A stretch of 64,000 nt of DNA from Fibrobacteria bacterium (GCA_037447435.1 JBBIGR010000004.1:128001-192000); one strand, 5' to 3'. Numbered from the stretch's first letter, positions 46,463-64,000 are shown. The notes: generated from the letters alone by a model not told the origin. Program-made: numbers and translations.

Positions 46463-47344
46463 TTACATATAGCCGTCTTTACGCAAAGTCTCTAAACCGC
46501 CGCCGTCGGCCTTGTCTTGTTCCCTGCCCGACCGCTCCGCAATATTTGCAAATTTTCCCGATCGAAGTTCTTCGATGATTTCCTGTACTGTCGAGGCTTC
46601 CGAATCGACCGGCGAGGTGCAGGGCCAGCAACCCAAAGACCGATATCGCTTTCCATTTCCCCGATTGTAATACAGAGAAACCGTGGGAATACTTTCTTTT
46701 TCGATATACTCCCAAATATTCAGTTCTGTCCAATCCAGAAGCGGGTGAATTCGTAAATGCGTTCCCGGAGCAAAATCTGTTTTAAACTGGTTCCACATCT
46801 CGGGCGGTTGATCGGCAACGTCCCATTCATTCTCCTTGTCGCGCGGAGAAAAATACCGTTCCTTCGACCTGCTGCCTTCCTCATCCGCCCGCACGCCGGC
46901 AATGACTCCGGTGTACGGTTCCTTATTTGCATCCACATCATAATTACCGGTTGCATGATTCATCCGATACCGCGGCCAATCGCCTGCCAAAGTATGTTTG
47001 AGCGCATCGGTCTTGAGGTTCTTGCAGCACCCAAGACGGTCCACCTTTCCACTTTGATATGTCAATTGCTGTCTAATTGCTTCCGTATTTTCGCCGTATA
47101 CCATATTCAAATGCCATTTCCGGGCCAAATCATCCCGGTATTGAATCATCTCAGGGATTTTGAAATGGGTGTCGATATGAACAAGAGGAATCGGCACATG
47201 CCCGAAAAAAGCTTTGCGGGCCAGCCATAACAGTACGGTGCTGTCTTTGCCGATAGACCACAGCATGCAAAGGTTTTTAAAATCGCGATATGCTTCTCTT
47301 AAAATGTAAACGCTTTTCGCTTCAAGTTTTTCAAGATGGTCCAT
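46463..47344 (-). CDS. cysD: Sulfate adenylyltransferase small subunit
   Basis: [52 protein letters not shown]. Confidence 0.96.
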
Positions 47345-47346
47345 TT

Positions 47347-48081
47347 TTAGTCCTTGCCAATGTTCGTATTGATATTTTTCGGCCTGTTATGCAATCCGCA
47401 TTCCTTATGCTCGGGTTCCTCCCACCACCACCGTCCGGCCCGCACATCGTCATCGGGGCCAATAGCCCTTGTACAGGGCGCGCATCCGATGCTTCGAAAT
47501 CCTTTTTCGTACAATACGGACACGGGCAGAGATTTTTCACGCACATAAGAAAAAACGTCTGCTTCTTTCCAATTACATAAAGGACTTATCCGGTAGATTT
47601 TATTGACATCGTCCCATTCAACGGGCGAAAGATCCGTTCTGGTAACGGATTGTTCGCTACGCAAGCCAACGATCCACGCATCGACTGTAGACAATATCTT
47701 TTGAAGCGGCCGTGTTTTTCGCACAGCACAACAGGATTTGCGGGATTCTACATTGTCGTAAAAAAGGTTTGGACCATTTTTCCGGGTAAGTCGCCCAACA
47801 TCCTCCGGATCCGGAAAGGCAACTTCATAGGAAATGTTAAAATGTTTTGTCGATTCATGCCATACATCATAGGTTTCCTGAAAATGACGCCCTGTATCAA
47901 GCGTAAATAAACGGGCACGGGGATTTTCGGAAACCAGCATATTCGTGAGAACCTGGTCTTCTGCGCTGAAACTTGAAGCCAGAGCAATATGCGTAAGCCC
48001 AAATTCATCCAAAGCCCAGGCAATTAAACAAGCAGCGCTCATATGCTGGGTTATCTCGCGATAGTCGATTGCTTTTTGCAT
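47347..48081 (-). CDS. cysH: APS/PAPS reductase, Fe-S (APS-reductase) type
   Basis: [15 protein letters not shown] and SIGCAPC (four cluster cysteines), [20 protein letters not shown] before ATG 48081. Confidence 0.95.
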
Positions 48082-48100
48082 TATTATTACCTCCTTTTCC

Positions 48101-48331
48101 CTAGATCGTATATTCGGGAGCGGTGATTTCACTGCGACCGAATTTAATACGATTCCATAATCGCTCATGAAAGTAATAAAGAGTTATCTTTGTAAATAAT
48201 TCGACAAACCCAATCGAGAGAGCCACTCTAATTTTCCCGCTTATCAAATACGAAACAATGATAGTGTCGAAGGTCCCTGTCAGTCGCCAAGAAACGGCTT
48301 TGACAACACTGCGATATTTTTTCTCAACCAT
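48101..48331 (-). CDS. DUF2061 small membrane protein
   Basis: RSVVKAVSWRLTGT.DT...YYFHERLW..IKFG. Confidence 0.9.
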   Translation of the reverse strand: MVEKKYRSVVKAVSWRLTGTFDTIIVSYLISGKIRVALSIGFVELFTKITLYYFHERLWNRIKFGRSEITAPEYTI

Positions 48332-50694
48332 TAATTTCCCTTTCTGATGCGTACAATCCAATAATCATCGATTTTTACCTGTTCGAGAACCAAATGACCT
48401 TCTTCGGTTATTGAGCGTGGGACATTATCTATCGGCGCGCCGTCATCGAGCGTAATTTCGAGAATCTGGCCCAAGGACATTTTGGCCAATTCCATTTTGG
48501 TTTTAACAAAGTTCATAGGACAGGCAACTCCGCGTAAATCCTTGACATAATCGATATTTATTTTTTCTTCGGACGTTTCTGCGGCAACAGTAACATTCAC
48601 TTGCCCTTGGACCTTGAATTGAAGGGAATTGTCCATTCCCTCATAAAGTTTTTCAACGGCCGTCGACAGCTCAAGTACTTGCTCTTGCAAAGAGGATAAA
48701 ACCGTATCCTTTCCCGCTATTGCCCTTTCAATCAGGTCCGCGAACCTTGCATCAATAAGATTTTCATTAATAAACAATGTTTTGAAAGAGCGTAATACAT
48801 CAGCATCGGTCGCTGCCTCCACACCGCGGGTAATGAGCAGCATTCGAGAGCTCACCAGTACAAGATCGTACAATTCGCTCTGAATAGAGGCACTATTATA
48901 ATTTTCGTTTATAAACGACCTGAGTTCCCGAAGCTTTGCCAAATCGATTTCTATTAAATCAAATAATCCTGCGGAGCATTCGCCGGTGCCTTTGCCGGCA
49001 AGCGAGAAAATTTCGGAATCTCCCCAATCGCGATAATAGCTCTTATCAATTTCAAACTCAGGAATGTTCCTGAACTTATCGCATAATTTTCGTATTATTT
49101 CTTTTCCTTCGGCGTTTATATATTCGCTGAAGCGGGAATAAACCGATTTTCTTTTTCCATAATGCGCCAACAATTCTTCAACAAAAAACGGCAGATCCTT
49201 TGCATTTATTTCATCTATTTTCTCCGCAAGCTGAAAAGCCCCTTCCGCATCGATACGCGCACCGGCCACAACAAAATATGAAGGAAAACTGTGCTGATTT
49301 TTACGACCGACTTTTCCGAAAAAGCCGAGATCAGCCACCGAATGCTGTCCGCAGGTATTTGAACAGCCCGAGACATGAATATGCAGATCATTGAAATCAT
49401 CAAGATTAACATCAGCAAATTTCAATTGATCGACAATACCCTGCAGAGCACCGCGAGACCGGCAAATTCCAAGCTGGCAGGTACTCGCGCCTGCGCAGGC
49501 AACGGCATTTCCAAACAATGGCGCATACGCCGATAGGTAGCTCACTTTTTTGACGAGACGGTATACGTTTGGAAGGAATGGCAAAGGAATATTCCGCAGC
49601 GCAATATTTTGATTATGCGTAAACCGTATGGTGTTTTCGCCGAAAGGGATTAAAAATTCCGCAAGTGCCAATGCCTTTTGCGCATCAATAATACCAAAGA
49701 GCAATGGAATTTTAACAAATCCCGATTCGCATTGTTTTTGTATTCCCGTATACCGTTGTTTCCAGGTTTCAAAATCAAGCGATGTGGCAGTATCCGGGGC
49801 AATTTCTTTTGGCAATGCTTTTTCATTTTTATATTCCGTAATTGTCAATACCTGCAATCCTTCTTTTAAAAGGCCGGCTTTTTCTTCGTTGTATAAACTG
49901 ACAAATTTGTCCCTGCCGAGGGAATTCCATAAAAACCTCAGTCTTGCAGCGTGCTTGTTTTTCCGGTTGCCGTATTTTGAGAAAACGCGTTTTATCGCTT
50001 CGGCAATAACGAGTATTTCGGATGCGGGAACAAATTCGTGAAGCAAATGTCCTGCTTGAGAAAGACGCCCCATTCCTCCGGCCACAAGCACTTTAAATCC
50101 GGGCTTATTGTCTTTGATTGAGGCAATAAGGCCCAAATCATTGACTGTTGCAAAGGCAGTATCTTTTTCCGAATTCGAAAAAGCTATTTTGTATTTGCGC
50201 GGCAAAAGCCATGAATCACTCCGCGCAATGAGCGATGTCGTCAATGCGGCAGCATAGGGTGTGACGTCAAATAGTTCGTCTTGGGTAATGCCGCTGTCCC
50301 AGGGCGCGGTGATGTTTCTTACCGTATTTCCACCGCCGCCCCGCGTCGACAATCCGACATCTGCCAGGCCGCGGATGATCGGCACCAAATCATCGATGCC
50401 AACGTCATGGATCTGAATCTCCTGACGCGTTGTCACGTGCAAAGATCCGGAGCCAAAGCGCTTGGAAAGCTGCGCGATAGTTTTGAGTTGAAATGGGGTT
50501 ATAATGCCTGCGGTGCATCTCACCCGCACCATGTACGTGTCTTTTTTTCGCTGTTCGTAAACGCCGAAGGGAACCCTATGGGCCTTTAATTCGGTTGGCA
50601 AAACCGATCCTGCATGGTAATTTTTTATCAGTACTTCTAATTCATCAATTTCGTTGTGTAGAGAAGCCGGTATCGAATAACCCTGTAATGACAT
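48331..50694 (-). CDS. sir: Ferredoxin-type sulfite reductase fused to a C-terminal TusA domain
   Basis: YMVRVR, HVTTRQEIQIH, TVRNI, LPRKYKIA, CAGASTC and GCSNTCG (siroheme/4Fe-4S ligands); C-terminal DLRGVACPMNFVK. Confidence 0.92.
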   Translation of the reverse strand: MSLQGYSIPASLHNEIDELEVLIKNYHAGSVLPTELKAHRVPFGVYEQRKKDTYMVRVRCTAGIITPFQLKTIAQLSKRFGSGSLHVTTRQEIQIHDVGIDDLVPIIRGLADVGLSTRGGGGNTVRNITAPWDSGITQDELFDVTPYAAALTTSLIARSDSWLLPRKYKIAFSNSEKDTAFATVNDLGLIASIKDNKPGFKVLVAGGMGRLSQAGHLLHEFVPASEILVIAEAIKRVFSKYGNRKNKHAARLRFLWNSLGRDKFVSLYNEEKAGLLKEGLQVLTITEYKNEKALPKEIAPDTATSLDFETWKQRYTGIQKQCESGFVKIPLLFGIIDAQKALALAEFLIPFGENTIRFTHNQNIALRNIPLPFLPNVYRLVKKVSYLSAYAPLFGNAVACAGASTCQLGICRSRGALQGIVDQLKFADVNLDDFNDLHIHVSGCSNTCGQHSVADLGFFGKVGRKNQHSFPSYFVVAGARIDAEGAFQLAEKIDEINAKDLPFFVEELLAHYGKRKSVYSRFSEYINAEGKEIIRKLCDKFRNIPEFEIDKSYYRDWGDSEIFSLAGKGTGECSAGLFDLIEIDLAKLRELRSFINENYNSASIQSELYDLVLVSSRMLLITRGVEAATDADVLRSFKTLFINENLIDARFADLIERAIAGKDTVLSSLQEQVLELSTAVEKLYEGMDNSLQFKVQGQVNVTVAAETSEEKINIDYVKDLRGVACPMNFVKTKMELAKMSLGQILEITLDDGAPIDNVPRSITEEGHLVLEQVKIDDYWIVRIRKGN

Positions 50695-50769
50695 TAATTT
50701 TCCTTCCTGACACTTATACCTCCCGCCGAGCCCCATCTCATCGCAGAGAGGGGAAGTTTGGAAAGCGGA

Positions 50770-50994
50770 TTAATTATTTTTCTCTATGAGGATACGGTAA
50801 TGGCTGCCTTCGTTCTTAATTTCGAGTATGCGATGTCCCTGTTCTTTGGCCGCTTTTGGAACATTGACCAACGGTTCCTCTTCGGAAAGCAGCACGTCCA
50901 ATATATCACCCGGTGAAATTTTCGAAAGCCCTAATTTGACTTTCACAAAAGTCATAGGGCAATGGTCTTTTGTTATATCGAGCGTATGTGTCAT
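50770..50994 (-). CDS. TusA-family sulfurtransferase
   Basis: LDITKDHCPMTFVKVK, GDILDVLL. Confidence 0.92.
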   Translation of the reverse strand: MTHTLDITKDHCPMTFVKVKLGLSKISPGDILDVLLSEEEPLVNVPKAAKEQGHRILEIKNEGSHYRILIEKNN

Positions 50995-51037
50995 AATTAT
51001 TCTCTTTTCCACTATATGATTATCTCACTCATTAACT

Positions 51038-51523
51038 TCATGAAATGAATATAACCTGGCCATTTTTTGAATATTCCAAAAATGTCGGTACGCCGATGAC
51101 CTCTTGTACGTCATCAATTAAATCGGATTTTTGAATTCCAAGGATATGCATCGCCATTTCGCAGGCAACCAATTTGACCTTGAGCTGTTTGGCCGATTCT
51201 ATAAGTTCGTCGAGTGTTGCGACATTGCGTTTTTTCATCATCCCGGTCATGAGTCCCGGGCTAATGCCCCCAAAATTCAAGCGGGACAGTGGTAAATTTT
51301 TACTGCCGCCCATAAGGAAATTGAAAAAACGAGCGAGAAATCCTTTACCGATAGTAGAACGCCCCTGTTTTTTCTTCAGGATATTAAGCCCCCAAAAAGT
51401 AAAGAACACATTCACTTCCCAATTGACCGCAGCAGCACCGGTTGCAAGAGTAAAAGCGGCGACCGCTTTGTCGAAATCGCCTGAAAAGCATATGATCGAT
51501 AATTTTTTTGTTTCGTTTTCCAT
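51038..51523 (-). CDS. DsrE/DsrF-like (DsrE_2) protein
   Basis: KLSIICFSGDFDK, VFFTFWGL, ACEMAM. Confidence 0.9.
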   Translation of the reverse strand: MENETKKLSIICFSGDFDKAVAAFTLATGAAAVNWEVNVFFTFWGLNILKKKQGRSTIGKGFLARFFNFLMGGSKNLPLSRLNFGGISPGLMTGMMKKRNVATLDELIESAKQLKVKLVACEMAMHILGIQKSDLIDDVQEVIGVPTFLEYSKNGQVIFIS

Positions 51524-51535
51524 AACGTCCTTCTT

Positions 51536-51931
51536 TCAAACAACAACTATTTTTTCCAGTACCACATTTCCATTTTTTATAATAAACGATTTTACGGTTT
51601 CCTGTCCGTTTTCAAGGGAAACTATGACGTAACTTATAGACGGATCATAGGCAAGCCGGATGTCTTCCTGCGAGGGCCGCGCTGGAGTCGCCGGATGGCT
51701 ATGATATACCGCGCGAAGTTTCATACCAAATCCCCGTATCCTTTTGACCGTATCAAACTGTTGTTTAGGGTCCAAGGAAAAATGCTCGGCCGAGGCATCG
51801 GTATTTGTCAAAGGATAATTTACGGTAACGACGTCATCTGTTGCAGCCAAATACCCGCACGCTTCGATCGGGGCATCTTTTTTCGCATGCGCAATCATCG
51901 AATCAATAACCTGTTTTTGAATCTTTAACAT
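51536..51931 (-). CDS. M67/JAMM metallopeptidase (Mec/HcyD-like)
   Basis: EACGYL, YHSHP...PSQED JAMM motif. Confidence 0.93.
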   Translation of the reverse strand: MLKIQKQVIDSMIAHAKKDAPIEACGYLAATDDVVTVNYPLTNTDASAEHFSLDPKQQFDTVKRIRGFGMKLRAVYHSHPATPARPSQEDIRLAYDPSISYVIVSLENGQETVKSFIIKNGNVVLEKIVVV

Positions 51932-51957
51932 ATTGACCTCTTTGTACCTATATCTGA

Positions 51958-51984
51958 ATTATCTACGCATTTTGCGTAGATAAT
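51958..51984. other. 12-bp inverted repeat inside the sulfur operon
   Basis: ATTATCTACGCA-TTT-TGCGTAGATAAT. Confidence 0.7.
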
Positions 51985-52019
51985 CGATAATATAAACTTA
52001 TCCCATGGGAAGCATGGGG

Positions 52020-52829
52020 TCAATGCTTAATATCGCAAACCGGCTGTTCCTCGTCGAAAAGTTCGGTTATGGTCGGCCTTTCTCCGCAAATCGCACAGTC
52101 TTTCCTTTTCCGCAAATTGACATTGCGAAATTCCATATCCATCGCGTTGAATGTCAGCAACTTATTGGTTAAGGGTTTGCCGACGTTGGTAACAAATTTG
52201 AGTGCTTCAGCTGCTTGTATGGTCCCCAGCATTCCGGCTATTGCCCCTAAAACCCCGGCCTGCGAACAAGTCGGCACAACATTTTTAGGAGGCGGAACAG
52301 AAAAAACGCATCGGTAGCAAGCCGAGGTTCCTGGAATTACAGTCATGGTTTGCCCGGTAAATCGCAATATGCCGCCGTGCGAATAAGGGATTTTCTCCAA
52401 AACACAGGCATCGTTTATAAGGAATTTTGCGGCAAAATTGTCTGTGCCGTCGATAATGAAATCATACCCTCTGATGATGTCCCGAATCGTGTCTGCAAAT
52501 ACATGTTCCGCAATCGCATTGACTTTCACATCAGGATTAAGTTCGGCGATTTTTTCCTGTGCCGAAAGGACCTTCGGTTTTTTAATATCTTTTGTAAAAT
52601 GTATGATCTGGCGCTGCAAATTCGAGAGATCGACACTGTCGCCGTCCACGATCCCCAACGTCCCTACTCCTGCGGCGGCAAGATAAAGCGCCGCAGGAGC
52701 TCCAAGCCCGCCGGCACCGATTATAAGGACTTTGCTTTTCATAATCTTCTCCTGGCCTTCGATGCCCACGTCCTTGAGAAGAATATGCCGGCTATACCGT
52801 TCGAGCTGGTCTTCAGTAAAGTCAATCAT
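52020..52829 (-). CDS. MoeB/ThiF-family adenylyltransferase (HcyF-like)
   Basis: RYSRHILL, GAGGLG, SNLQRQ, DGTDNF, CYRC ... CAIC. Confidence 0.94.
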   Translation of the reverse strand: MIDFTEDQLERYSRHILLKDVGIEGQEKIMKSKVLIIGAGGLGAPAALYLAAAGVGTLGIVDGDSVDLSNLQRQIIHFTKDIKKPKVLSAQEKIAELNPDVKVNAIAEHVFADTIRDIIRGYDFIIDGTDNFAAKFLINDACVLEKIPYSHGGILRFTGQTMTVIPGTSACYRCVFSVPPPKNVVPTCSQAGVLGAIAGMLGTIQAAEALKFVTNVGKPLTNKLLTFNAMDMEFRNVNLRKRKDCAICGERPTITELFDEEQPVCDIKH

Positions 52830-52920
52830 AATTTATCCAATCCTTGCTCAAAATCCTCGACTGTTGGTATCCGAGAATAGGCATGAGGCGCCCCATGAAT
52901 CGCCTTTAAAGCAAAGCCTT

Positions 52921-53130
52921 TCACCTGCCACCCCCCATAAAGTACAGAAACTCAATCTCGTCTTTTTCTTTAATAAGGGTAGAGTCAAAGTTTTTCCGGT
53001 CAACAAACTCACCGTTTAATTGAACCGAAACCATGTCCGGCGCTTCAACTTTAAACAATTTTAAGATTTCCGGAACAGCGATAGAATCGTTCGTTATTTG
53101 TTTTAGTTCACCATTCACTTTGATTTCCAT
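52921..53130 (-). CDS. ThiS-like sulfur carrier with masked C-terminus (HcyS-like)
   Basis: IKVNGE, VSVQLNGEFV, C-terminus LYFMGGGR; GAGG SD before ATG 53130. Confidence 0.92.
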   Translation of the reverse strand: MEIKVNGELKQITNDSIAVPEILKLFKVEAPDMVSVQLNGEFVDRKNFDSTLIKEKDEIEFLYFMGGGR

Positions 53131-53248
53131 ATTTTGCCTCTTTTCGAAATTCTTATTCTCAGCCATAAGTCATTTAAAGCAACTAATCAGCCAATATATT
53201 TCGAGAATTAAACGAACTTTTTGTTTACTACATTTATCAACTATAAAT

Positions 53249-53470: not shown

Positions 53471-54538
53471 TTACGTCTGTGCTTCGAACACAAAGGGGAA
53501 AACGACTTCGACCGGGCTTCCCCCGTCTACTGCAGGGAAAGTCCAACGTTTGACATATCGCACGAGGGTTTCATCAAATTCGGAATTTTTAGTTGTGGAA
53601 CTGACTATGGCGACATTTGAAACGCTGCCATCGGGCATGATGGTGAATTTTATCTTGATTTGACCGGCAAGCGATGGATCGCGTTTAAGCCACGTTTCAT
53701 AAACACGTTTCAGCCTATTGCTTTCAAGGTCAATGACCTTTTTAATTGAGGTTTGCGAACGTTCTTCGGCATTACTGGTATTGCCGGTCACTTCCGGAGC
53801 GGAAGAAGAAATTGCAACACCGCCGCCAGTAGTTATTTTTTGCGTTTTGGCTTTTCCGACACTTTCCTTTGCGATGTCGACACCCGATGTAACAGCCCCG
53901 CGCTTTGCCTTTAGGTCTGCGACATCAACATTCTTTGTTGCAAACGTGCCTTTGGAAACAGTGATATTTCCTAAATCGCCAACTCCCTCTCCTGCCGCAC
54001 CGAGCAAATCGGAAACAGGACTGTTTGATCCGCCTCCGCCTCCGCCGCCCGTGGAAGTTATTGCAGCAAAAATTCCAGCGGATTGAATGGCAGCCTTAAC
54101 CTTTTCCCTGGCAACCTGACGCTGCTCTTTCGTTGCTTCCTGGCGTTGTTGTCGCTGAACAAACGTTTCCTTTTCCCTATCGACCTTGACTTCCTCTTCC
54201 TTGGTTTCCGTTGCGGTTTCCTGTGTCTTTTGCGTTGCTTCGACCGCTTTTTCCTCTTTTTTAACTTCGGGAGGTTTTGGTTTTGGCTGATTCAACACGA
54301 GCTGTGCGTAGCGCTCCTGAATCTTGACGATTTCCTGCTCGCTTACCGTCGTATTGATCTTTCGTTGTGAGAGAATAGATACGGTGACAAATGCAAATAA
54401 AAGCAAAGAGCCGAAAATTATGGCAAAGCGCGGTTCGATGCGCGAAAGCAGGTTCCGCTTATATTCTTTTGGGAAATTCCCAAGCGGCCCTGCTTCTGCA
54501 GGATGATGCATGAAAAATATGCCCGATTGCGCAGCCAC
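53471..54538 (-). CDS. TonB-like energy transducer (AgmX/PglI/GltG-type C-terminal domain)
   Basis: Single TM, P/K/E-rich then Gly-rich linker, LKRVYETWLKRDPSLAGQIKIKFTI.PDGSV...WTFP...VVFPFVF; AAGGA SD before GTG 54538. Confidence 0.88.
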   Translation of the reverse strand: MAAQSGIFFMHHPAEAGPLGNFPKEYKRNLLSRIEPRFAIIFGSLLLFAFVTVSILSQRKINTTVSEQEIVKIQERYAQLVLNQPKPKPPEVKKEEKAVEATQKTQETATETKEEEVKVDREKETFVQRQQRQEATKEQRQVAREKVKAAIQSAGIFAAITSTGGGGGGGSNSPVSDLLGAAGEGVGDLGNITVSKGTFATKNVDVADLKAKRGAVTSGVDIAKESVGKAKTQKITTGGGVAISSSAPEVTGNTSNAEERSQTSIKKVIDLESNRLKRVYETWLKRDPSLAGQIKIKFTIMPDGSVSNVAIVSSTTKNSEFDETLVRYVKRWTFPAVDGGSPVEVVFPFVFEAQT

Positions 54539-54542
54539 GTAC

Positions 54543-55046
54543 TTATCCTTTTCTGTAAACAACAAGATTCATGGACGGATAACCGGCCTGGCCGCAGGTG
54601 TACATAATTCTCGTAAGAACATTGTACGGAATTGCGACATCTCCCTGTATGGATATCTTGCCTGAGAATTCGGTTTTGAACATTGCGGAAGATTTTTTCG
54701 CCTCGTCGGAGTATTTTTTCAAAACTTCATAGAGAGGCTGTATCATGAAATCCTTTTGCGCCATGAGATCGGAATAGGCTTTGGCATCGATGACGATTTT
54801 ATTTTCCACCATAATGGTGGATTTTGAAACCATGACATTCAGGGCCTGACCGGCATTTTTTTCAATCGACGATGTCGGCAATAGTAAATTTGTCGCAGGA
54901 GTAACGAGCTGTCCCTGCGCAGAATAATTCTGCAAAAGGAATACCACCATGAGCGTAAACATATCGATCATGGACGTGATATTGAGCCTAACGGTGCCGT
55001 CACCGCGTTTACGTCTGCGTCGTCGTATTGATTGTCCTGCCGGCAT
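54543..55046 (-). CDS. ExbD/TolR-family protein (AglS-like)
   Basis: RRRRRKR, LNITSMIDMFTLMVVFLL (conserved TM Asp), IQGD..IPY..LTRIMYT. Confidence 0.92.
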   Translation of the reverse strand: MPAGQSIRRRRRKRGDGTVRLNITSMIDMFTLMVVFLLQNYSAQGQLVTPATNLLLPTSSIEKNAGQALNVMVSKSTIMVENKIVIDAKAYSDLMAQKDFMIQPLYEVLKKYSDEAKKSSAMFKTEFSGKISIQGDVAIPYNVLTRIMYTCGQAGYPSMNLVVYRKG

Positions 55047-56356
55047 TATTGTATTATCCCTCCGGCAATGGAAACATTAGGGAACATGGTCACGTTTCCG
55101 TCGGGTGTCCGGGTGCCGCGTGCGGCATCCATGACAGCCACCACCGTTTTATAGGCGATTTTATCTTCGGCAACGATTTTTATCGCATCGTTATCGGGAA
55201 ACATTTTGCCCGGATCGATTTTTTTTGTTTCATAAGCTCTGCCCAATTGAAACAGACTTGCGTCCTGCGGAATGGAAGGATAATACGCCCGCATGATATC
55301 GTTCAGCACTTTTTTCTTTACATCAGCAAGTTTGGCATTAAGCCCGACATAATCGTATTCACCGTTTATCAATGGAATATCCGGCTGTTTTTGAGCCATG
55401 GTTGCGCCTTGCGCTGCAGATTTGTCTTCCTGCTTGAAATAATGGAATAAAGTAAATCCTTTTTGCGTGATCACGACGCCCAATTCCAATTTCGTTTCCG
55501 AAGTTGCGCCGGCTCCGCCGCCACCGCCGCCGCCTTGCGTCGCTTCAGGCAATTTCAATTCTATTGCCCCCATCTTTACGAATTCGGATGAGGTGAGCAA
55601 AAACGGGATAAGCATAACCATGAGGTTCAACATGGGCGTGACATCGGTGTCCGCCGCTTCTTCTTCATTGCCGCTTCTCCTCACCAGTGAGTTTAAAGCT
55701 TTGCTGGTGACCGTCGGTGGATTAAGATTGTTGAGAATCGCAATTGCATACCGGTCGATTTCGACCAGTGCAGTGTCGACACGCGAACGCAGGAACGAAT
55801 ACATCATGACACAAGGAATACTGATTGACAATCCAACAAGCGTCGAATTCATTGCAGCGGAAATTCCCGCAGCAAGCAAAGCCGATTTTTCTATTGCGGC
55901 AACACCGGGACGCCCAACCGCGGCAAACGACATTATCAAGCCGAAAACAGTACCGAGCAATCCCAGCAACGTCGAAACGTTTCCAAAAGCAACAAGCAAG
56001 CTAAGCCTTTTTTCCATCGAAGCGGCCATGTGTGTGGATTCTTCCCCCATTGCTCCGGCAATGAGATGCGGCTCTACTTGCGCTTTTCGTATCCCGGCTC
56101 CGAGTATGCGGGGAAGAGCCCTATGCCCGCCCGAGGCGCAGATTCGATATGCTTCGTCAAGGTTTTTATCATCGATGAGTTTTTTTATTTTTTCAAAAAA
56201 TCCGACCGCATCATAGTCGGTACGGCGGTTTATCGCAAGCCATCGCTCAACGGTAATCAAAATGGCTGCGATGCCGAGTGCGGAAAGCAGCCACATGAAG
56301 AAAAACGCTTCATGCGCAGGAAGAAAACATTTTAATAATTCGCCGAAAATGCCCAT
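55046..56356 (-). CDS. ExbB/TolQ/MotA - ExbD/TolR fusion protein
   Basis: N-half ExbB (STLLGLLGTVFGLIMSF, GISAAMNSTLVGL); C-half ExbD (DVTPMLNLMVMLIPFLL, IELKLP, IAYKTVVAVMDAAR); one uninterrupted 436-aa ORF. Confidence 0.88.
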   Translation of the reverse strand: MGIFGELLKCFLPAHEAFFFMWLLSALGIAAILITVERWLAINRRTDYDAVGFFEKIKKLIDDKNLDEAYRICASGGHRALPRILGAGIRKAQVEPHLIAGAMGEESTHMAASMEKRLSLLVAFGNVSTLLGLLGTVFGLIMSFAAVGRPGVAAIEKSALLAAGISAAMNSTLVGLSISIPCVMMYSFLRSRVDTALVEIDRYAIAILNNLNPPTVTSKALNSLVRRSGNEEEAADTDVTPMLNLMVMLIPFLLTSSEFVKMGAIELKLPEATQGGGGGGGAGATSETKLELGVVITQKGFTLFHYFKQEDKSAAQGATMAQKQPDIPLINGEYDYVGLNAKLADVKKKVLNDIMRAYYPSIPQDASLFQLGRAYETKKIDPGKMFPDNDAIKIVAEDKIAYKTVVAVMDAARGTRTPDGNVTMFPNVSIAGGIIQ

Positions 56357-57124
56357 TTAGATATTGATCTCTTTTATCAATTTATTGTCGGTAAAAATTT
56401 TAATGTTGTTGTGCGTTACGTGCAGACCAACGCCTTCCTTAAGCTGCGATGCGCTGATATGATATTTATGCGTTTTAAAAGATTTTTCAATAAGCGCATT
56501 GAGCACACGAACAGAATATTCGTCCAATTCATCGATTATTTTTTGGGTTTTGGCTTTTAAAAACGCATAAATCATGATGGAGGTAATGGCAACCGACAAC
56601 CCGGTAAACGTCGAGTTCATGGCTGTCGCGATACCAGAGGCAAGAAGTTCGGACTTTTGTGCGGCATCGATACCCGGACGACCGACCGCGGCAAACGACA
56701 TGATAAGACCGTACACGGTTCCTAAAAGTCCTAACAATGTTGCGACATTACCGATGACTGCCAGGTAACCCGTGCGTTTTTCGAGCAGCGGAATTACCTT
56801 TAGCATAGACTCGTCTATAGCATTGCGGATACGTTCGGCACCGGTATTAGCCTCTTCAAGACCGGCCTTTACTACGCCGGCCAATGCCATTCTTTTTCCA
56901 TTATCGCAAAGCTTGAGAGCGGAGGGCACATCGTCTTTTTGCAGCATTCCGAGAATTTCACGGATAAATTGGTTCGAACGGAAGCCGGACTTGCTTGTCA
57001 AGAACACAAAACGTTCTATGATTATTGCCAAGGCAAATACGCCGGTAACTAAAATTGCCCACATGAAAAGAAATGCATCTGATTGAGGGCTGAAAGCGTG
57101 AAGAAGTTTGAGAATAAACTCCAT
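56357..57124 (-). CDS. ExbB/TolQ/MotA proton-channel protein with C-terminal extension
   Basis: ATLLGLLGTVYGLIMSF, GIATAMNSTFTGL; paralogous to the N-half of the next gene. Confidence 0.93.
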   Translation of the reverse strand: MEFILKLLHAFSPQSDAFLFMWAILVTGVFALAIIIERFVFLTSKSGFRSNQFIREILGMLQKDDVPSALKLCDNGKRMALAGVVKAGLEEANTGAERIRNAIDESMLKVIPLLEKRTGYLAVIGNVATLLGLLGTVYGLIMSFAAVGRPGIDAAQKSELLASGIATAMNSTFTGLSVAITSIMIYAFLKAKTQKIIDELDEYSVRVLNALIEKSFKTHKYHISASQLKEGVGLHVTHNNIKIFTDNKLIKEINI

Positions 57125-57246: not shown

Positions 57247-58680
57247 TCAATTGTCTGTAGACCGATTTTTCTCATATCCGACGTTTATTCGGCCGATGAA
57301 TTTGGCCAATTCGGTCGCATGCGTTCCGTCGTCATCAATTATCAGCGGAATCCTGTCGTTCGAAACGGGAAATATGCCGAATGCCGGATCGCAAAACAAC
57401 GGTTTATTATTAACATACACGAGTACCCAGGCATGCCCGACAAATGATTTTTTCGGGGCGTAATATACCAAACCGAGAACCACTCTGGCAGGTATTTTCG
57501 CCGCGCGAAGCAGTGCGGCACATAAAACGCTGTGCTCTCCGCAATCGCCGAATCCGGCATGCAAGGTTTCTACTGCGCTTGAAAACGTGGCCGTATTTCT
57601 TTTTATCAAAGTCTTATAAACATAGGTATTGCAAGCCTCAATAATCGCTAACCGGTTAGTTGCCGCTGATTTGATTCTTTTTGACAATGAGAGTATCGAT
57701 GGGTGGTTCGATTGCATGGTCGTCGTAGGAACGGTATAACGAAGCAACTCCGATTCCGTTTTTGCTATTTTATCATGAACGGTATCCAAGACTAACTTAT
57801 TGACCAAATAGATATCGCTGCGACGGGTGTAAAACGCCAGAACCGAGGAATCAAGCCTTTCACGCCCGGGCAATTCCACGAGGATTCGGTCATCGATTTC
57901 CGGACTCCGGGCAACGGGAGCCGCAAGCAGCTCTGTAAAATCAATATCTTTTTTCGCTTCGCCGATGTTGGCTACGGGGTACGGTTTCCGTTTTTTCGCA
58001 ATAAACAAGCCTTCTATTTCCTGTTCAACGGTATTGCCGTTTGAATCCAAAATCCATTTTTGCGACCGCGCCATTCGATCGTCGACCATTTCAAAAACAA
58101 ACTGTTTGGAAACGGGGTCCATTGAAACCGCGGAATATCGCGTTGCAACCGGTTTTCCGGTAACCAGGTCAAAGGACGTATCCGAAAAAGACATACCCGT
58201 ATGATAATTCCGCTGGGCAACGGCGGCATATATGCGATCCATTGCGTTGAGATTCTCATTGACAACAACATTCTTTTTTTCCGTCTTAACGCCGCCGATG
58301 TTGAGTTCAAGATCCCATTGCGTGGCCTTTTTTTGCAAAACCCATTCGTTTGCACCGCTTTGGCTTTTTATGACTGAGGAAGCCGATACAAGATTGCCGC
58401 CGGAATCGTATTGCCTTTTTTCCTCTAAATCAACCGACATCCCCTGTTGGTTTTGCGCAACGGCAAGATGAATCGTATTATTTATCGCCCGCAAAGAATC
58501 GACAACGGTTTGGGTATGGTATAACGTTCCGACGATGCGGTCCTGGTAAAAAACATCCAAGGTTTCCGCCTTTTGGTATTGCTTCCATTGTTGCAAACCG
58601 GAAAAAGAGGTGCTGGAGTTGCCTGAAGAAAAAAACACAAGCGCCAAAAGGCAAAAAAAGATCCGACGGAAAAAAAACAT
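57247..58680 (-). CDS. Exported transglutaminase-like domain protein
   Basis: Signal peptide; GDCGEH..AALLRA.KIPARVV.G..GHAWV..DP (Cys-His-Asp triad). Confidence 0.88.
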   Translation of the reverse strand: MFFFRRIFFCLLALVFFSSGNSSTSFSGLQQWKQYQKAETLDVFYQDRIVGTLYHTQTVVDSLRAINNTIHLAVAQNQQGMSVDLEEKRQYDSGGNLVSASSVIKSQSGANEWVLQKKATQWDLELNIGGVKTEKKNVVVNENLNAMDRIYAAVAQRNYHTGMSFSDTSFDLVTGKPVATRYSAVSMDPVSKQFVFEMVDDRMARSQKWILDSNGNTVEQEIEGLFIAKKRKPYPVANIGEAKKDIDFTELLAAPVARSPEIDDRILVELPGRERLDSSVLAFYTRRSDIYLVNKLVLDTVHDKIAKTESELLRYTVPTTTMQSNHPSILSLSKRIKSAATNRLAIIEACNTYVYKTLIKRNTATFSSAVETLHAGFGDCGEHSVLCAALLRAAKIPARVVLGLVYYAPKKSFVGHAWVLVYVNNKPLFCDPAFGIFPVSNDRIPLIIDDDGTHATELAKFIGRINVGYEKNRSTDN

Positions 58681-58710
58681 GTTTCTACAATATCCTTACC
58701 CGGAACTACT

Positions 58711-59652
58711 CTATTGAACGGGATCTTTTGCGACTTGCGTTTGGAAAGAATCGAAGCGTGTACCGGTAATTCGGTGAAACGCCGCTTCAAAATCCGCTGT
58801 TTTTGCAAATCCGATTTGTTGCGACATCGATTCGGCTGTCGTCGTACCGTTCAATTCCAAAAGACGTTTTGCATTATTGATTCTAACATGCGATATAAAC
58901 TCGGAAACCGAGACGCCCAAATCTCTTTGGATAAGGGATTCGAGAAACGCTTCACCAGTCACGAGTTCTTTGCAGATCGTTTCGGTATCCAAGCCCGGAT
59001 TTGCATAATTTTTTTCTATAAACCTGCAAGCCATCTGAACCTCCTTATCCATGACGGAAAGGCGGGTCGTGGTCAGAAATCTGCCTGTCCCCTTTTGTTT
59101 CTTTAGAAATATCAGCGCTAGGGCGATACATCCCAAAGAAAAAAGCGTACCGAGCATAAGCCACAATTTCCAACCCGATTTTTGGGAACGGTTTTTAGAA
59201 GCCGGCTTTTGAAAAGATTGATTTTGAATAACGATCGGCTTTGCAATGCTGTCGGGAGCTTTTATCTGTAACTTTGAGGTGTCTTTAGCTACGACGGTAT
59301 GCACGGTTTCTGTTTGTGCGGGCGTATTTTTCACCATTGCATTTTGAGCGTTCGCCGCTGAAAGCGAATCATGATGGCGGACCGTGTCGCGGCTTGGAAC
59401 CGTTGCCGTGTCGGGTGCCAAAGCGACCGTATCGACGACGGTATCCTTTTTTACGATGTTTGCAGACGGCTTGGGTTTTGGTTTTTGCTTGGACGCAACG
59501 TCATTTGAAACAGAAAAAACCGGTTTGGCATTTTTTTTTATTGGTTTCTTTACGACAGCCGTCGAAGACGTGGCGACCGTACTTGCCAAACAAACGACTA
59601 CCAGACATATGCGAATAACGGAGTAATTGTTCTTTTTTGTTTCAAACAGCAT
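58711..59652 (-). CDS. Membrane-anchored AraC-type HTH protein
   Basis: Signal-like N-terminus, low-complexity region, TM (LWLMLGTLFSLGCIALALIFL), then FIEKNYANP.L...VRINNAKRLL...IGF...F...FHRITG. Confidence 0.82.
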   Translation of the reverse strand: MLFETKKNNYSVIRICLVVVCLASTVATSSTAVVKKPIKKNAKPVFSVSNDVASKQKPKPKPSANIVKKDTVVDTVALAPDTATVPSRDTVRHHDSLSAANAQNAMVKNTPAQTETVHTVVAKDTSKLQIKAPDSIAKPIVIQNQSFQKPASKNRSQKSGWKLWLMLGTLFSLGCIALALIFLKKQKGTGRFLTTTRLSVMDKEVQMACRFIEKNYANPGLDTETICKELVTGEAFLESLIQRDLGVSVSEFISHVRINNAKRLLELNGTTTAESMSQQIGFAKTADFEAAFHRITGTRFDSFQTQVAKDPVQ

Positions 59653-60937
59653 ACCGTTCCATTTGCTCTTTAAGCATTGCATGATAATTCGATTTTAGAG
59701 CGCCGATTTTCGCGTTCAACCGTTTACAAAAATGTCCGGCCTCGACATAGTCCCTCGATTTCATATTCTGCCACAATTCACGCAGGGTCCGGTCGTTCAG
59801 GATTTCACTGGTCGACACTTCAAAATGCATCATTTGATTTTCCGAAATCCTTTTATAGGTATCCTGAATCATTTGAAGCAACTCGGCGTACAGATTCTGG
59901 TCGGACCGGTTTTGCAACGAGGTAACGCCGAGTGATAGTTGTTCAAGGAAAAACTTGCTGTTGAAAATATAATGTCTTTTATTTTTATACGCTTTGGGGT
60001 CATAAAAATATTCTCCAATCACCCTGCCTTTCGTGGTTTTAACCACCGATTTCGGAAACGGCGGCGGCAGAGCGGGAACTTGCTGCGACTCTTTATAAAT
60101 TGTCAACAATTCATCGTCCGGATGCCCCTCCGCGGCAAGGTCTTTGATCGAATCAAGCTGCAGTACCGAAGTTTTATCTTTCGTGATATCCGGTGCCATG
60201 GATTGAATCGAGGCATTCATGCTGCTTTGCACGGAAGCGAAAATTTCCTCCTGTTTTATATCGCCTTTCGTATCGGCGTCGGTATCCTTTGAAGCGGTTT
60301 CGTCGTGCGCATGCTCGGGAACCGCAACAGCGTCCGTTTGAGCCTGAGAAGCAAGGCGTTCGGTAAATGCAGTCACCGGATTATCGCCTTCCTGTTGCGA
60401 TAGTATTATTTCGAATAAACCGTTTATGATTTCGTTTTCGTTGACCAAAAGCTCCTTCTTAAGTTGCGTATCTATCAATGTGAGCTCTTGTTCCTTTACT
60501 TTTAGTTTATCCAATTTCACCGTAAGTTCGGAAAGCTCGGAACTGCAATCGCTTATTTCCTGTTTGACTGTTGCTATTTCAGAATCACGGGTCCGTTTTT
60601 CCTCTAAAAGAGTCCGGGAATCCCTGCTAATTTTTTTTATCAATTCTTCCTTGGTACGTACGACGTCCATTTTTTTCTGGTAATACTGAATGAGCATATC
60701 GAGCGTCGAAGCTTCGCTGTTGTTTTTCTGCATGGTCCGCTTTAGCGACCATAGATGTTCCAATGCCGCTTTAGCATTTTCGGTTTCGCCCCGCAGCAGC
60801 CGTTCGGCTATATCGTAGGTGTTTTCCGAGACTGTTGTTGCCCGGGCATCCAATAAAATGGAATAAAATTTGTTCGAATCCTTCGTACTTTTCGAAAGAT
60901 TCATCGTGCTTTCCGATAATTCTTGAATGCGGTTCAT
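59642..60937 (-). CDS. Hypothetical coiled-coil protein
   Basis: 431-aa ORF with SD and its own promoter; long heptad-rich N-half; no family recognised. Confidence 0.75.
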   Translation of the reverse strand: MNRIQELSESTMNLSKSTKDSNKFYSILLDARATTVSENTYDIAERLLRGETENAKAALEHLWSLKRTMQKNNSEASTLDMLIQYYQKKMDVVRTKEELIKKISRDSRTLLEEKRTRDSEIATVKQEISDCSSELSELTVKLDKLKVKEQELTLIDTQLKKELLVNENEIINGLFEIILSQQEGDNPVTAFTERLASQAQTDAVAVPEHAHDETASKDTDADTKGDIKQEEIFASVQSSMNASIQSMAPDITKDKTSVLQLDSIKDLAAEGHPDDELLTIYKESQQVPALPPPFPKSVVKTTKGRVIGEYFYDPKAYKNKRHYIFNSKFFLEQLSLGVTSLQNRSDQNLYAELLQMIQDTYKRISENQMMHFEVSTSEILNDRTLRELWQNMKSRDYVEAGHFCKRLNAKIGALKSNYHAMLKEQMERYAV

Positions 60938-61166: not shown

Positions 61167-62615
61167 TTATAAAGGTTCCATACGCAAAGACAAAAATAGT
61201 TCCTGCAATTTTGGATCTCTTCCGATCCTTTCGGTGTCGGAGTATCCGGCATCCAACGCTTTTGCCAAAAACGTTCTTGCCGCATCGGTTGCGCCTTTTT
61301 CCAATTTTATTTTAGCAAGTAAGAACCAAGCCTGCGGGCAATCGTCATGGTCATTACAATAGCGTTGAATTGCGGTTTCGGCATCGTCGATATTATTTGT
61401 AAGGATCAGGCCTTCCCATCGGATGATGTCCATCGAAATACTTTCTTGCCGGCAACGCTTGGCAAAAGCAATCGCCTCGTCAATCTGTTTATTGTCATAG
61501 GAGTATTGGGCAAGACAGGATAATACATGGTCCGAGACATCGGCACTTGAGCGCAGCCTTTTAAACAACGACTTGCCGATCGGCTTGAACCGGTGAATAA
61601 GCATTCGCTCCGCATCGAGTTCATCGCCTTTCATGTCCAGCTTCTCAGCGCGGCCCAGTAAATCCAACGCTTCTTTCGTATGGTCCAACTCACGTAAAAT
61701 CATGATCGATTCCGCAACTGCCGCCGACGAAAGTCGCGTCAACACCGCGCGTGTCGACTTACAATAACTTTCGATATCGCCTTTCAAAAGCGCCAGATGC
61801 CTAAGTCCCATCCAGCCCGGCATTTCCCTTGGCGACAGGGTGACCGCTTTGGTATACCATAGTTTTGCCTGATCATAATCTTTTTGTTTCGTGGCGACAT
61901 TTCCCAAATTGACATATAATCCGGCATCGGCCTTGGCAAGTTGTACCGCCTTTGAATAGCAATCGAGCGCATTGGTCAAATCATTGATATTTTCATACGC
62001 AACGCCGATGTTTTTGAGCGCCGAAGGAAATTCGCGCTGAAGCCGAATCGCGCGCTTATAGGCTTCTATGGCCTTTTCATTGTTTTGAGACTGCAAATAC
62101 GAATTCCCCAAATTAAACCAGGCGTCGGAAAAATCGGGCTTAACGGTCGTCGCTTTTGCGAATAATGCCATTGCCTCCTCCGCTTGCCCTTCTTTGTCGT
62201 AACAATTTCCAAGGTTAAGCAAGGCGCCCGGATTGTCCGGTTCAAGCTCCAGCACCTTTTTAAAAGATTGAATAGCGGCGGCATTATTATTGGATGCAAG
62301 TTGTACGATACCCAAATTATTCCATCCCTCAATTCTTCCGGGAGAAAGAACCGTTAATTTTTTAAAAGTGCTTTGCGCTTCTTCAAGATCCTGTCGCTTA
62401 AAACTGGTATTTCCTAAAGCAAGCAATATGGAAAAATTATTGGGATTTCGCTTTGCCAGATCTCTATATACTTCTATTGCCTCATTAAACCAACCAAGGT
62501 CGGAATATTGCTGGGCGAGTTTCGTTCCCGCATCAAGATCCTGCGGGTTTTGCGCATAGGTACGGCGCAAATCGTCGAGTATTTCCTGAGGATCCTTATC
62601 TTCGTCTTGCGCCAT
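61167..62615 (-). CDS. Tetratricopeptide-repeat protein
   Basis: Multiple TPR units (WNNLG, LLNLG, WFNLG, LKNIG, YVNLG...A...Y.KA..L.P). Confidence 0.92.
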
Positions 62616-62629
62616 GATACTCTGTATCC

Positions 62630-64000
62630 TTATTTGGCAAGTATTTCTGCGGCCTTTGGCACATATTTCGAGTCCAACAACTCCTGAATATATTGCCATT
62701 GCGGATATTCACCCGACCGAGCCCAGTTCTTTTTTACGACAATATCGTACCACGCGTCAAGGTACACATTGCCGATTTCTTCGAAATGAACATCTCCGGG
62801 GATGACGGTATATTTGTTGTACATGAGCTGCCGGAACGATGTTTCGTAAATATTGGTTATCCATCCTCCGCCGAACATCATCGACATATCGCTGAGGATT
62901 TCTTTTCGGACAGGAATCATTCCGAATCTGCTGCAATCCTGTATTTGACTTTTTGTCCCCGTGACATACGATGCGAGTTCCCACGACAATCGGGGATTAG
63001 GCGTATTTACCGGAATTCCCCACCACCAACCGCCGGTAGTTACCGATTTTTTTCCTTCCCGCAATATACTCCCGTTCGCATCAAGAATTATCGAGCATCC
63101 TTGCGGCATGGTCGCTACGGCCATATCGTTCGGATCGTTTAAAAATCCGTCAAGTCCATCCTGTCCTGTTCCATGAATAAAGAAGCAATCAACCTGAGTC
63201 ATAAACGCGCAAAAAACCTCGCCCTCTTTGAATGCTTTCCATATTTCCATGCCGCCCCACGATTCTTCCCACATTCGTTTATTATAGACCGACGTCGCGT
63301 ATGCCGCCTCCCACATAAATGCATCGGCTACCGCATTGCCCTTCATGCTCAACACCTGCGAACTGTCGCCGTTGCATTGAAAAACCCTATCGATAATACG
63401 GAGCGAAGTGCCCGAATACCGTTTTCCCCTATGCCCGATTCGAGGCAAAATTTTTCCGTCGTACGGTGTATGCGCCCAAATCCACCCGACCACATAGACA
63501 TCGAAAAAGTCCCATTTATTGGGATCTTCCTCCAAAACATAGGTAGAGGGCAAGCCATAGCCGTTGATCTTTTTCATATCGGCATCTATTGCGTCTTTGA
63601 AATTTGCCCATCTGCTTATGGCATCGGCGACCTTGCTTTTGCAGTAAACCATTATCCGTGTTTCGAATTTACGGGGAACAAGGTATTGCTTGTCGTCGTA
63701 TGTTCCCAGCGACGTCAGCATATATTTGGCCCTGAAATTTTTAATTTCATCCGCGGTCAGAATGGAATCAAGAGGCATTAACAGGTGCTTTTTAATAAGC
63801 GCCTTACTTTTTTCGAACGGAATTTTTACAAGCGAAACATGCCCGGCCCGTTGGCCTAATTCGGTTTCCAGGTCCGAAGGATTTTCGTAATGGACAACCG
63901 TCGTTTTCGCATGGTTTTCGCGGTCGAACCCCGGAATAGCCTCTTTGGAGAAATAATCCTCCTGCGCTTTGATCATTTTTACAAGGACTATGGATTGTCG
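62630..64000 (-). CDS. Extracellular solute-binding protein (ABC sugar-binding type); runs off the right edge
   Basis: [54 protein letters not shown]; frame stays open upstream of 63976. Confidence 0.75.

Follow-up and report, generated by a model that had tools for sequence, protein, structure and literature searches.

Can a ring subunit and an axle subunit of a membrane motor be joined in one polypeptide, and what would such a joint mean for the way the motor works? The question is raised by a locus at positions 53471-57124 of a 64,000-nucleotide stretch of DNA from a Fibrobacteria bacterium (GCA_037447435.1 JBBIGR010000004.1:128001-192000), which was analysed as a whole and is called the window here. 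The minus strand of the locus contains four open reading frames (ORFs) with nearly no spacing. They encode a free ring subunit (ExbB1), a second ring subunit fused to an axle subunit (ExbB2 and ExbD-A), a free axle subunit (ExbD-B), and a TonB/GltG-like protein (Table 1). The stop codon of exbB1 abuts the ATG of the fusion gene (TAAATG), and the stop codon of the fusion gene overlaps the ATG of exbD-B by one base (TAATG). The fusion is real and anciently conserved, and the module is kept as a unit. We consider it fairly probable that the four genes encode a single motor of the Tol/Ton/Agl type, powered by the proton motive force and hard-wired to be asymmetric, with a presumed 4+1:1+1 composition.

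An initial annotation of the locus had named the genes as exbB, an exbB::exbD fusion, exbD, and a TonB/GltG-like gene, and had placed an asparagine codon at 55627-55625 in the fused ExbD (TPMLNL), an aspartate in the free ExbD (TSMIDM), and a linker of about 30 residues between the fused parts. The gene content is borne out by the ORFs and Pfam, and both residues by codon reading; AlphaFold2 predicts a disordered linker of 28 residues (212-239). As family members, the parts of the locus are unremarkable and belong to PF01618, PF02472, and the TonB family. At the curated gathering cut-offs of Pfam (22.9 bits for PF01618, 25.4 for PF02472, and 24.6 for TonB_C, PF03544), PF01618 is matched by ExbB1 with 91.3 bits and by fusion residues 82-200 with 81.7 bits, and PF02472 is matched by fusion residues 231-415 with 47.6 bits and by ExbD-B with 52.7 bits. 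The TonB-like protein matches TonB_C (36.4 bits), TIGR01352 (39.9 bits, cut-off 27.1), and the AgmX/PglI C-terminal domain NF033768 (86.6 bits, NCBIfam cut-off 40). The NCBIfam equivalogs of TolQ (TIGR02796, 63 and 54.5 bits against a cut-off of 221), TolR (TIGR02801, 23.1 and 17.9 bits against 127.3), and ExbB (TIGR02797, 50.8 and 37.7 bits against 206.2) are not reached.

The initial annotation had called for a search for the fusion in other genomes, and it is present there. A full-length fusion, defined as a stop-free match that covers the query from residues 1-5 to 430-436, was found in 51 of 201 sampled Fibrobacterota genomes, that of the window included, and in five more the match is cut by contig ends. 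The best 120 matches among 5.8 billion clustered proteins are all 401-449 residues long, contain both Pfam domains, and are 54-95% identical to the fusion; their sources, where named, are Chitinispirillaceae, Chitinivibrionales, and Fibrobacterota metagenome-assembled genomes (MAGs). A filter-free search of 1.84 billion cluster representatives returned 11 near-full-length fusions of 408-439 residues and 36-64% identity, and beyond these only unfused ExbB or ExbD proteins and fragments. Among the clusters, one bears the name Candidatus Raymondbacteria and another the label Proteobacteria. The gene order ExbB1, fusion, ExbD-B, TonB-like is retained in 19 of 19 close loci and in seven of seven distant loci (fusion identity 36-40%), as far as each locus reaches. 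ExbB1 is present in all 26 of these related loci, and ExbD-B in all 25 that reach its position. The identities between the window and the seven distant loci are 39% for ExbB2, 34% for ExbD-A's periplasmic domain, 48% for ExbD-B, and 33% for the TonB-like protein.

Family f10, the largest sampled (78 genomes), gave only weak, stop-containing matches to the fusion, which are ordinary adjacent exbB-exbD genes. In the Fibrobacteraceae-like families, the ExbD-A query gave no match in two complete f10 genomes, and only weak matches in three genomes of families f15 and f20, a result that applies to this query and does not imply absence. When the fused ExbD part was searched by itself, 53 proteins came back, almost all of them fusion fragments on short contigs, and the result is uninformative on unfused relatives.

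Residue 244 of the fusion occupies the position of the transmembrane Asp of ExbD, TolR, and MotB. It is Asn in 121 of 121 sequences, comprising the query and its best 120 database matches. Over 27 Fibrobacterota loci, the residue is Asn in 21, Gly in five, Ser in one, and Asp in none, and the Gly or Ser occurs in deeper branches of the fused clade. The fused ExbD-A lacks the transmembrane-Asp feature of PF02472 (Asp25 in E. coli ExbD), which ExbD-B possesses through D28. ExbD-B has Asp in 26 of 26 Fibrobacterota sequences, and D28 is invariant in an alignment of 48 rows. The genome of the window encodes ten ExbD-family genes in six systems. The TolR of a TolQ-TolR-TolA-like operon, which is followed by one further gene that we take to be tolB, has the Asp, as has the ExbD of a small ExbB-ExbD-TonB set. 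The remaining four systems, including the fused one, each have two ExbDs, with Asn in the first and Asp in the second. One unfused first-ExbD paralogue from this genome has Asn in 120 of 120 homologues among the matches listed. The three unfused two-ExbD operons of the genome (L003, G000:C8; L004, G000:C2; L005, G000:C39) contain one ExbB each, and the first ExbD of the C39 system is longer (268 residues) and has an insertion.

The fused ExbD-A belongs to a distinct ExbD subfamily, the nearest unfused members of which are 39-46% identical to it. The four nearest unfused ExbD-A proteins were used as probes, with one genome per species, and returned 72 unfused loci. They come from KSB1, Caldithrix, MAGs labelled Cytophagia or Deferribacteres, Woeseiaceae, Steroidobacteraceae, other Gammaproteobacteria, Deltaproteobacteria, Myxococcales, and Anaeromyxobacter. 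The loci were located through two motifs outside the transmembrane helix, so that the residue itself does not bias the count of Asn. The loci are, however, related to each other and not independent. The unfused operon is composed of one ExbB of about 216 residues, ExbD-A, ExbD-B, which is the orthologue of the free ExbD of the window, and a TonB-like gene. Directly upstream of ExbD-A, 69 of the 72 loci have an ExbB ORF, and the remaining three begin at a contig end; neither a fusion nor a second ExbB was found among the 72. Of the 70 loci in which the unfused ExbD-A could be read, 50 have Asn and 20 have Asp, which makes Asn the usual residue of the first ExbD. The Asp type is found in Steroidobacteraceae and their kin, Anaeromyxobacter, one Deltaproteobacteria MAG, and one KSB1-like subgroup. 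ExbD-B of the unfused operons has Asp in 66 of 67 picked sequences; the 67th falls in an alignment gap, yet its Asp is visible in the sequence. The Asn of the initial annotation is genuine, and the survey of unfused homologues that it had suggested shows that the residue is not peculiar to the fusion, as it recurs in these 50 of 70 loci, in the 120 listed homologues of the paralogue, and in the three other two-ExbD systems of the same genome. It is a common family trait that is older than the fusion.

The ancestor of the locus would have been an unfused operon of exbB, exbD-A with Asn, exbD-B with Asp, and a tonB-like gene, of the kind that persists in KSB1, Calditrichota, and Proteobacteria. 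In the Fibrobacterota lineage, exbB would have been duplicated, and the stop and start codons between the second copy and exbD-A would then have been lost. The gap between exbB and exbD-A in unfused operons is often only a few bases, so that the loss of one stop and one start codon is enough to create the fusion. An ExbB tree with 55 rows, 13 of them ExbB1 and 13 ExbB2, was rooted on the TolQ of the window genome and places each of the two in a group of its own, with support in the Shimodaira-Hasegawa-like approximate likelihood ratio test (SH-aLRT) of 94 and 97, respectively. The two groups are sisters (SH-aLRT 94) and form a clade with the unfused ExbB of the KSB1/Calditrichota type (SH-aLRT 98). 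Branches of ExbB2 are about twice as long as those of ExbB1. The tree suggests that the fusion was accompanied by a duplication of ExbB, with the order of events given above favoured but not fixed.

The fusion protein was modelled with AlphaFold2 from 64 aligned sequences, with a mean predicted local distance difference test score (pLDDT) of 73.7 and a predicted template modelling score of 0.48. The ExbB2 module is formed by a first transmembrane helix, a helical cytoplasmic part, a second transmembrane helix, and a third one that continues into its cytoplasmic extension as a single helix of 58 residues. Its best Foldseek match is E. coli TolQ (9ddm_E, E-value 1.1e-6, template modelling score 0.71 on the target), followed by ExbB and MotA/PomA. 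The models of both ExbB1 and the fusion have the TolQ/ExbB-like fold with three transmembrane helices, as supported by Foldseek for ExbB2. T136 and T172 are invariant across both ExbB1 and ExbB2. The helix of ExbD-A is the best-conserved part of the fusion, with identities of 97% to close and 61% to distant loci. At its periplasmic end, E258 (55583-55585, LLTSSEF) is invariant in 121 of 121 sequences and 27 of 27 loci; many unfused ExbD-A proteins have Gln at this position, compared with the invariant Glu of the fusions. The disordered periplasmic segment carries an I-x-L-x-L-P motif in which K268, L269, and P270 are invariant or nearly so. The motif resembles V45-V47-L49-P50 of E. coli ExbD, which is described as a signal-transduction motif (bioRxiv 10.1101/2022.09.26.509584). 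ExbD-A's periplasmic domain contains an insertion of about 32 residues (about 330-362), which is absent from unfused relatives in the alignment and falls within a stretch where extra helices are predicted (336-358 and 368-378). Runs of glycine codons at 55500-55545 in the fusion gene and at 54027-54050 in the TonB-like gene encode GGGGGGG in both proteins, and draw short spurious contig matches from unrelated metagenomes.

The linker between the two modules differs from the parts that it connects, as its length is held while its sequence drifts. It is only 16% identical between the window and the distant loci, and the spacing from D201 to P241 is constant at 38-39 residues in 26 of 27 loci and, among 64 aligned fusions, in 61. 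Such behaviour would be expected if the spacer is retained in the mature protein. The linker pattern RRSG..EE..D.TP parallels PSLRR...E.NLTP of unfused ExbD-A, and the linker retains the cytoplasmic N-terminal tail of the ancestral ExbD-A. The only conserved in-frame Met near the junction is M242, which lies inside the helix after basic residues, and the ancestral start Met is not conserved in the linker.

ExbB1 is 255 residues long in all seven distant loci and most close loci; the exceptions are six close loci with longer ORFs from an upstream start codon, and a shortened one in L018. The AlphaFold2 model of ExbB1 (pLDDT 81.9) has three long transmembrane helices and a C-terminal tail in which three short β-strands are predicted (232-237, 240-245, and 248-254, pLDDT 57-67). 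The tail is the most conserved segment of the module, with identities of 88% to close and 78% to distant loci, compared with 52% to distant loci for the body of ExbB1. ExbB proteins of the unfused systems, most of which have about 216 residues (range 205-271), lack the tail. A search with the tail gave no Pfam match and no Atlas hit.

In its organisation, the system comes closest to the Agl/Glt "core complex". AglR-AglQ-AglS-GltG of Myxococcus xanthus likewise combines a single TolQ-like protein with two TolR-like proteins that differ from each other, and its TonB-like protein has a C-terminal domain of the AgmX/PglI type. A clustered set of one TolQ-like, two TolR-like, and one GltG-like gene is found in the window and in the 26 related loci. 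The likeness to AglRQS-GltG that had been pointed out in the initial annotation is upheld by this gene set and by the NF033768 match. Luciano et al. 2011 (PMC3169522) reported the core complex from Delta-, Gamma-, and Betaproteobacteria, as well as from a single Fibrobacteres genome. Unfused orthologues were found by us in Myxococcota and Gammaproteobacteria, which are among the groups named there, and the core complex as described in the available text of that paper includes no fusion, unlike the Fibrobacterota locus (PMC3169522). A model of AglR5-AglQ-AglS-GltG with a heterodimeric axle has been predicted (PMC11761067), and the proposed 4+1:1+1 motor parallels it. A 2022 review of 5:2 motors treats it as an open question whether AglQ and AglS pair with each other or each with itself (PMC9389320). 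There are also differences from the Agl/Glt system. The TonB-like protein scores 117.7 bits against the GltG equivalog NF033760, below its cut-off of 650, and matches only profile positions 324-647, so that the preceding part of the profile, including the N-terminal cytoplasmic part, is unmatched. Family scans identified no gltD, gltE, or gltC homologues next to the operon, whose neighbours were not compared directly with GltD, GltE, and GltC. In the Anaeromyxobacter loci, both TolR-like proteins carry the Asp, in contrast to the Asn/Asp pair here. The unfused operons of KSB1, Calditrichota, and Woeseiaceae, and the three paralogous systems of the window genome, share the gene order, the ExbD-A subfamily, and the Asn/Asp pattern with the fused locus. 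They differ from it in having a single ExbB of about 216 residues without the tail, separate exbB and exbD-A genes, and no 32-residue insertion.

The resemblance to E. coli Tol, TolQ5-TolR2(-TolA) (PDB 9ddm, 9ddn, 8odt, 9kq0), extends to the ring subunit with three transmembrane helices, the axle subunit with a single transmembrane helix and a periplasmic domain, the gene for a TolA/TonB-like partner in the operon, and the TolQ-like fold of ExbB2. In contrast to E. coli Tol, the ring subunit is here covalently joined to the axle subunit, there are two isoforms of each, only one axle helix has the Asp, and ExbB1 has an extra conserved tail of 40 residues. The TolQ and TolR equivalogs are missed (63 against 221 and 17.9 against 127.3 bits), and the genome has its separate TolQ-TolR-TolA-like operon. 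E. coli ExbB5-ExbD2-TonB (PDB 5sv0, 6tyi, 9ddo) shares with the locus the two Pfam families, TonB_C in the fourth gene, and the I-x-L-x-L-P motif. The structural match to ExbB is weaker than that to TolQ in Foldseek, and the ExbB equivalog is missed (50.8 against 206.2 bits). E. coli ExbD forms a homodimer with an essential Asp25 (bioRxiv 10.1101/2022.09.26.509584), unlike the heterodimer proposed here. No gene for a TonB-dependent transporter lies beside the operon among the window ORFs that were scanned.

Automatic names assigned by the Joint Genome Institute already show both domains of the fusion. A phrase search, and a term search judged by titles and the beginnings of abstracts of the papers listed, found no paper on a natural ExbB-ExbD, TolQ-TolR, or MotA-MotB fusion, and the literature listings contained none on Asp-less ExbD paralogues. 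The words "fused", "tether", and "covalent" are absent from the available text of the 2022 review of 5:2 motors (PMC9389320). The architecture is present in databases and, as far as we searched, is apparently not discussed in the literature.

We propose that the ring of the motor would be built of four ExbB1 subunits and the ExbB2 module of one fusion protein. The axle would be a heterodimer of the fused ExbD-A helix, the Asn of which cannot carry a proton, and the ExbD-B helix, which would provide the sole Asp. Force would exit through the TonB/GltG-like protein to a periplasmic or outer-membrane partner. The fusion would set ExbD-A at one copy per complex and hold it in a fixed register to one of the ring subunits. 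The topology permits the fusion, since ExbB/TolQ ends, and ExbD/TolR begins, in the cytoplasm. A ring of five fusions would contain five ExbD helices where only two fit, so that free ExbB is needed, and ExbB1 is never missing. The composition of four ExbB, one fusion, and one ExbD had been suggested in the initial annotation. It gains indirect support from the single ExbB of the unfused systems, from the free ExbB1 that accompanies the fusion in 26 of 26 loci, and from the groups formed by ExbB1 and ExbB2 in the tree; the stoichiometry itself we infer. A single Asp per complex may suffice.

The complex of ExbD-A (residues 228-436) with ExbD-B was predicted with a score of 0.35, compared with 0.00 for the best of three controls. 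The mark set for such predictions is reached by 116 of 157 solved complexes and by two of 215 mismatched pairs, and it is reached at scores of 0.60 or lower by only 18 of the 157 solved complexes and by both passing mismatches. The runs agree in at least 69% of the contacts, and the pLDDT of the partner is at least 62, with alignments that we made ourselves. The prediction argues weakly for a heterodimer, and likeness to solved TolR/ExbD dimers may explain the pass. Several points weigh against the asymmetric motor. Which proteins share one complex, and in what numbers, we infer. Asp25 of E. coli ExbD is reported to be essential in both charge and position (bioRxiv 10.1101/2022.09.26.509584), and the function of the core complex outside gliding bacteria is described as unknown (PMC3169522). 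A tree that joins ExbB1 with the KSB1-type ExbB to the exclusion of ExbB2 is not rejected by the approximately unbiased (AU) test (p-AU 0.386), and the timing of the ExbB duplication is therefore not fixed.

It is also conceivable, although distinctly unlikely in our judgement, that the working motor consists of five ExbB1 subunits and a homodimer of ExbD-B with two Asp residues, as in E. coli, and that the fusion has an accessory role, for example in regulation, in assembly, or as a stand-by without activity. ExbB1 and ExbD-B alone carry every feature of a classical 5:2 motor, ExbB2 has evolved faster than ExbB1 (39% compared with 52% identity to distant loci, and longer branches), and an ExbD without the Asp would be inactive by the standards of E. 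coli (bioRxiv 10.1101/2022.09.26.509584). However, the pairing of an Asn-type ExbD-A with a neighbouring ExbD-B is retained across several phyla, in hundreds of sequences, and four times in the window genome itself, and neither partner has been lost in any lineage among the 26 loci. An idle accessory is also hard to reconcile with the conservation of the ExbD-A helix (97% and 61%), with the I-x-L-x-L-P motif that ExbD-A has kept, and with the invariant pattern of Thr and Gly in the second and third transmembrane helices of ExbB1, which is kept by ExbB2.

The fusion could, in turn, exist only at the level of the gene, with the protein cut in the linker or ExbD-A started internally, so that the subunits would be untethered as in an unfused system with two ExbB isoforms. 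The linker is disordered and poorly conserved, which would make it accessible to proteases, and M242 is a conserved in-frame Met. We regard this as very unlikely, since the frame is open through the junction in all 51 full-length genomes and in the 120 matches listed, and a held length of 38-39 residues is unexpected for a discarded stretch. M242 is equally conserved in unfused ExbD-A, where it is part of the helix. It follows the basic cytoplasmic residues, so that initiation there would yield a protein without its tail, and no conserved Met is found at the position of the ancestral start. That an artefact of assembly or sequencing conceals a stop and a start codon in the junction is close to inconceivable, and this reading was rejected. 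The window does come from a metagenome-type assembly, the only run that contains it is probably its own source, and the gene is broken in one genome, G157. Nevertheless, the frame is open in 50 other genomes and in more than 120 independent database proteins, down to 36% identity. A Logan contig produced by another assembler reproduces 53471-56901 with 0 differences, although it probably derives from the same sample and hence not from independent reads. No RNA run is listed as containing the stretch. In G157, ExbB1, the fusion, and the TonB-like gene are all frameshifted, each in two to five frame pieces (L125, G157:C11:796500-800500), which looks like indel errors of an error-rich assembly that strike the genes alike, and not like a natural split. 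The asymmetric motor that contains an intact fusion remains the explanation that we favour.

How such a motor would move is a separate matter. For MotAB, the current model has the ring rotating around the axle; for ExbBD, TolQR, and AglRQS, rotation is assumed by analogy and not shown (PMC9389320). The initial annotation had expected the tether to limit continuous rotation, and this expectation is not secure. The linker would be one disordered chain that connects the lower end of a ring helix with the axle helix at its cytoplasmic end. In a turning ring, the chain would sweep below the tip of the axle and gain one turn of twist per revolution, which could be shed by rotation about backbone bonds. 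The only object that the linker could wind around would be the N-terminal tail of the free ExbD-B, the end of which is loose, and there would be no topological winding around the axle. We think, by reasoning and not by computation, that the swivel of the linker would allow turning, and that rotation would be constrained rather than forbidden. The locus is a useful probe of rotary and reciprocating mechanisms, as the initial annotation had proposed, but with a linker that probably swivels it is not a clean test.

The held length of the linker suggests that geometry matters and that rotation may be hindered or limited. It is possible, though we think it unlikely, that the ring and axle stay covalently joined in the working machine and that the tether, together with the single Asp, makes the motor oscillate over a limited angle and not turn continuously. 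If this oscillation were real, 5:2 complexes of the Tol/Ton/Agl type could use proton flow to exert force on a TonB-like protein even where rotation is not free, and the widespread Asn/Asp axle pairs would be half-site motors with one proton path.

Table 1 Features of the fused ring-axle locus; positions count from the first nucleotide of the window
Feature	Position	Strand	Basis and remarks
exbB1, free ring subunit of the MotA/TolQ/ExbB family	56357..57124	-	ORF, 255 aa; PF01618
ExbB1 C-terminal tail FKTHKYHISASQLKEGVGLHVTHNNIKIFTDNKLIKEINI, residues 216-255	56360..56479	-	AlphaFold2: three short β-strands
exbB2::exbD-A fusion gene	55046..56356	-	ORF, 436 aa; PF01618 + PF02472
ExbB2 module, residues 1-211	55724..56356	-	AlphaFold2: transmembrane helices 18-46 and 118-147; third helix with cytoplasmic extension 154-211
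Linker, residues 212-239, 28 aa	55640..55723	-	AlphaFold2: disordered; pLDDT <50 at 217-221 and 223-236
ExbD-A transmembrane helix TPMLNLMVMLIPFLLTSSE, residues 240-258	55583..55639	-	AlphaFold2: helix 240-256
Asn codon AAC (N244, TPMLNL) at the ExbD/TolR/MotB transmembrane-Asp position	55625..55627	-	Codon reading; 121/121 Asn
Periplasmic disordered segment, residues 259-292, with I-x-L-x-L-P motif and Gly run	55481..55582	-	pLDDT <50 for 258-286
ExbD-A periplasmic domain, residues 293-436	55049..55480	-	PF02472 match to residue 415
exbD-B, free axle subunit of the ExbD/TolR family with transmembrane Asp	54543..55046	-	ORF, 167 aa; PF02472
Asp codon GAT (D28, TSMIDM) of ExbD-B	54963..54965	-	Codon reading
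TonB/TolA/GltG-like output protein, 364 aa	53471..54565	-	ORF; TTG start as listed, true start not settled

The region directly downstream of the operon (44615-53166, minus strand) is a cluster for sulfur assimilation and sulfur carriers. It encodes a GTPase resembling CysN/adenosine-5'-phosphosulfate (APS) kinase, two proteins with a 3'-phosphoadenosine-5'-phosphosulfate (PAPS) reductase domain, an 801-residue sulfite reductase with a C-terminal TusA domain, TusA, a DsrE-like protein, a JAB-domain protein, ThiF, and ThiS. Upstream of ExbB1 (57247-60937, minus strand) are genes for a transglutaminase-like protein of 477 residues, which likewise lies upstream in the nearest relatives L011-L014, a 323-residue protein with an AraC-type helix-turn-helix and a long N-terminal region, and a 431-residue protein without a Pfam family. 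They are followed by a gene for a 510-residue tetratricopeptide repeat protein at 61167-62699. The surroundings of the seven distant modules (L030-L036) include, on the 3' side, a gene for 100-124 residues in four of seven loci, a gene for a membrane protein of 150-200 residues in all seven, and a large gene in six, the N-terminus of which is presumably SecA-like. A gene for 570-650 residues precedes the module in three of these loci.

The interest of the locus lies in the covalent link between ring and axle through a linker of constrained length, and in how common axle pairs with a single Asp are. One ring subunit has been tied to one axle subunit across deep divergence by a linker of fixed length, which is a constraint on any mechanism proposed for this family of motors. 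Pairs of one ExbD without the Asp and one with it occur in many systems, and one protonatable site per complex seems to be enough; this pairing bears on models in which two Asp residues alternate. The fusion offers a ready-made, stoichiometrically defined complex for structural work, which could settle the question of heterodimers of the AglQ/AglS type.

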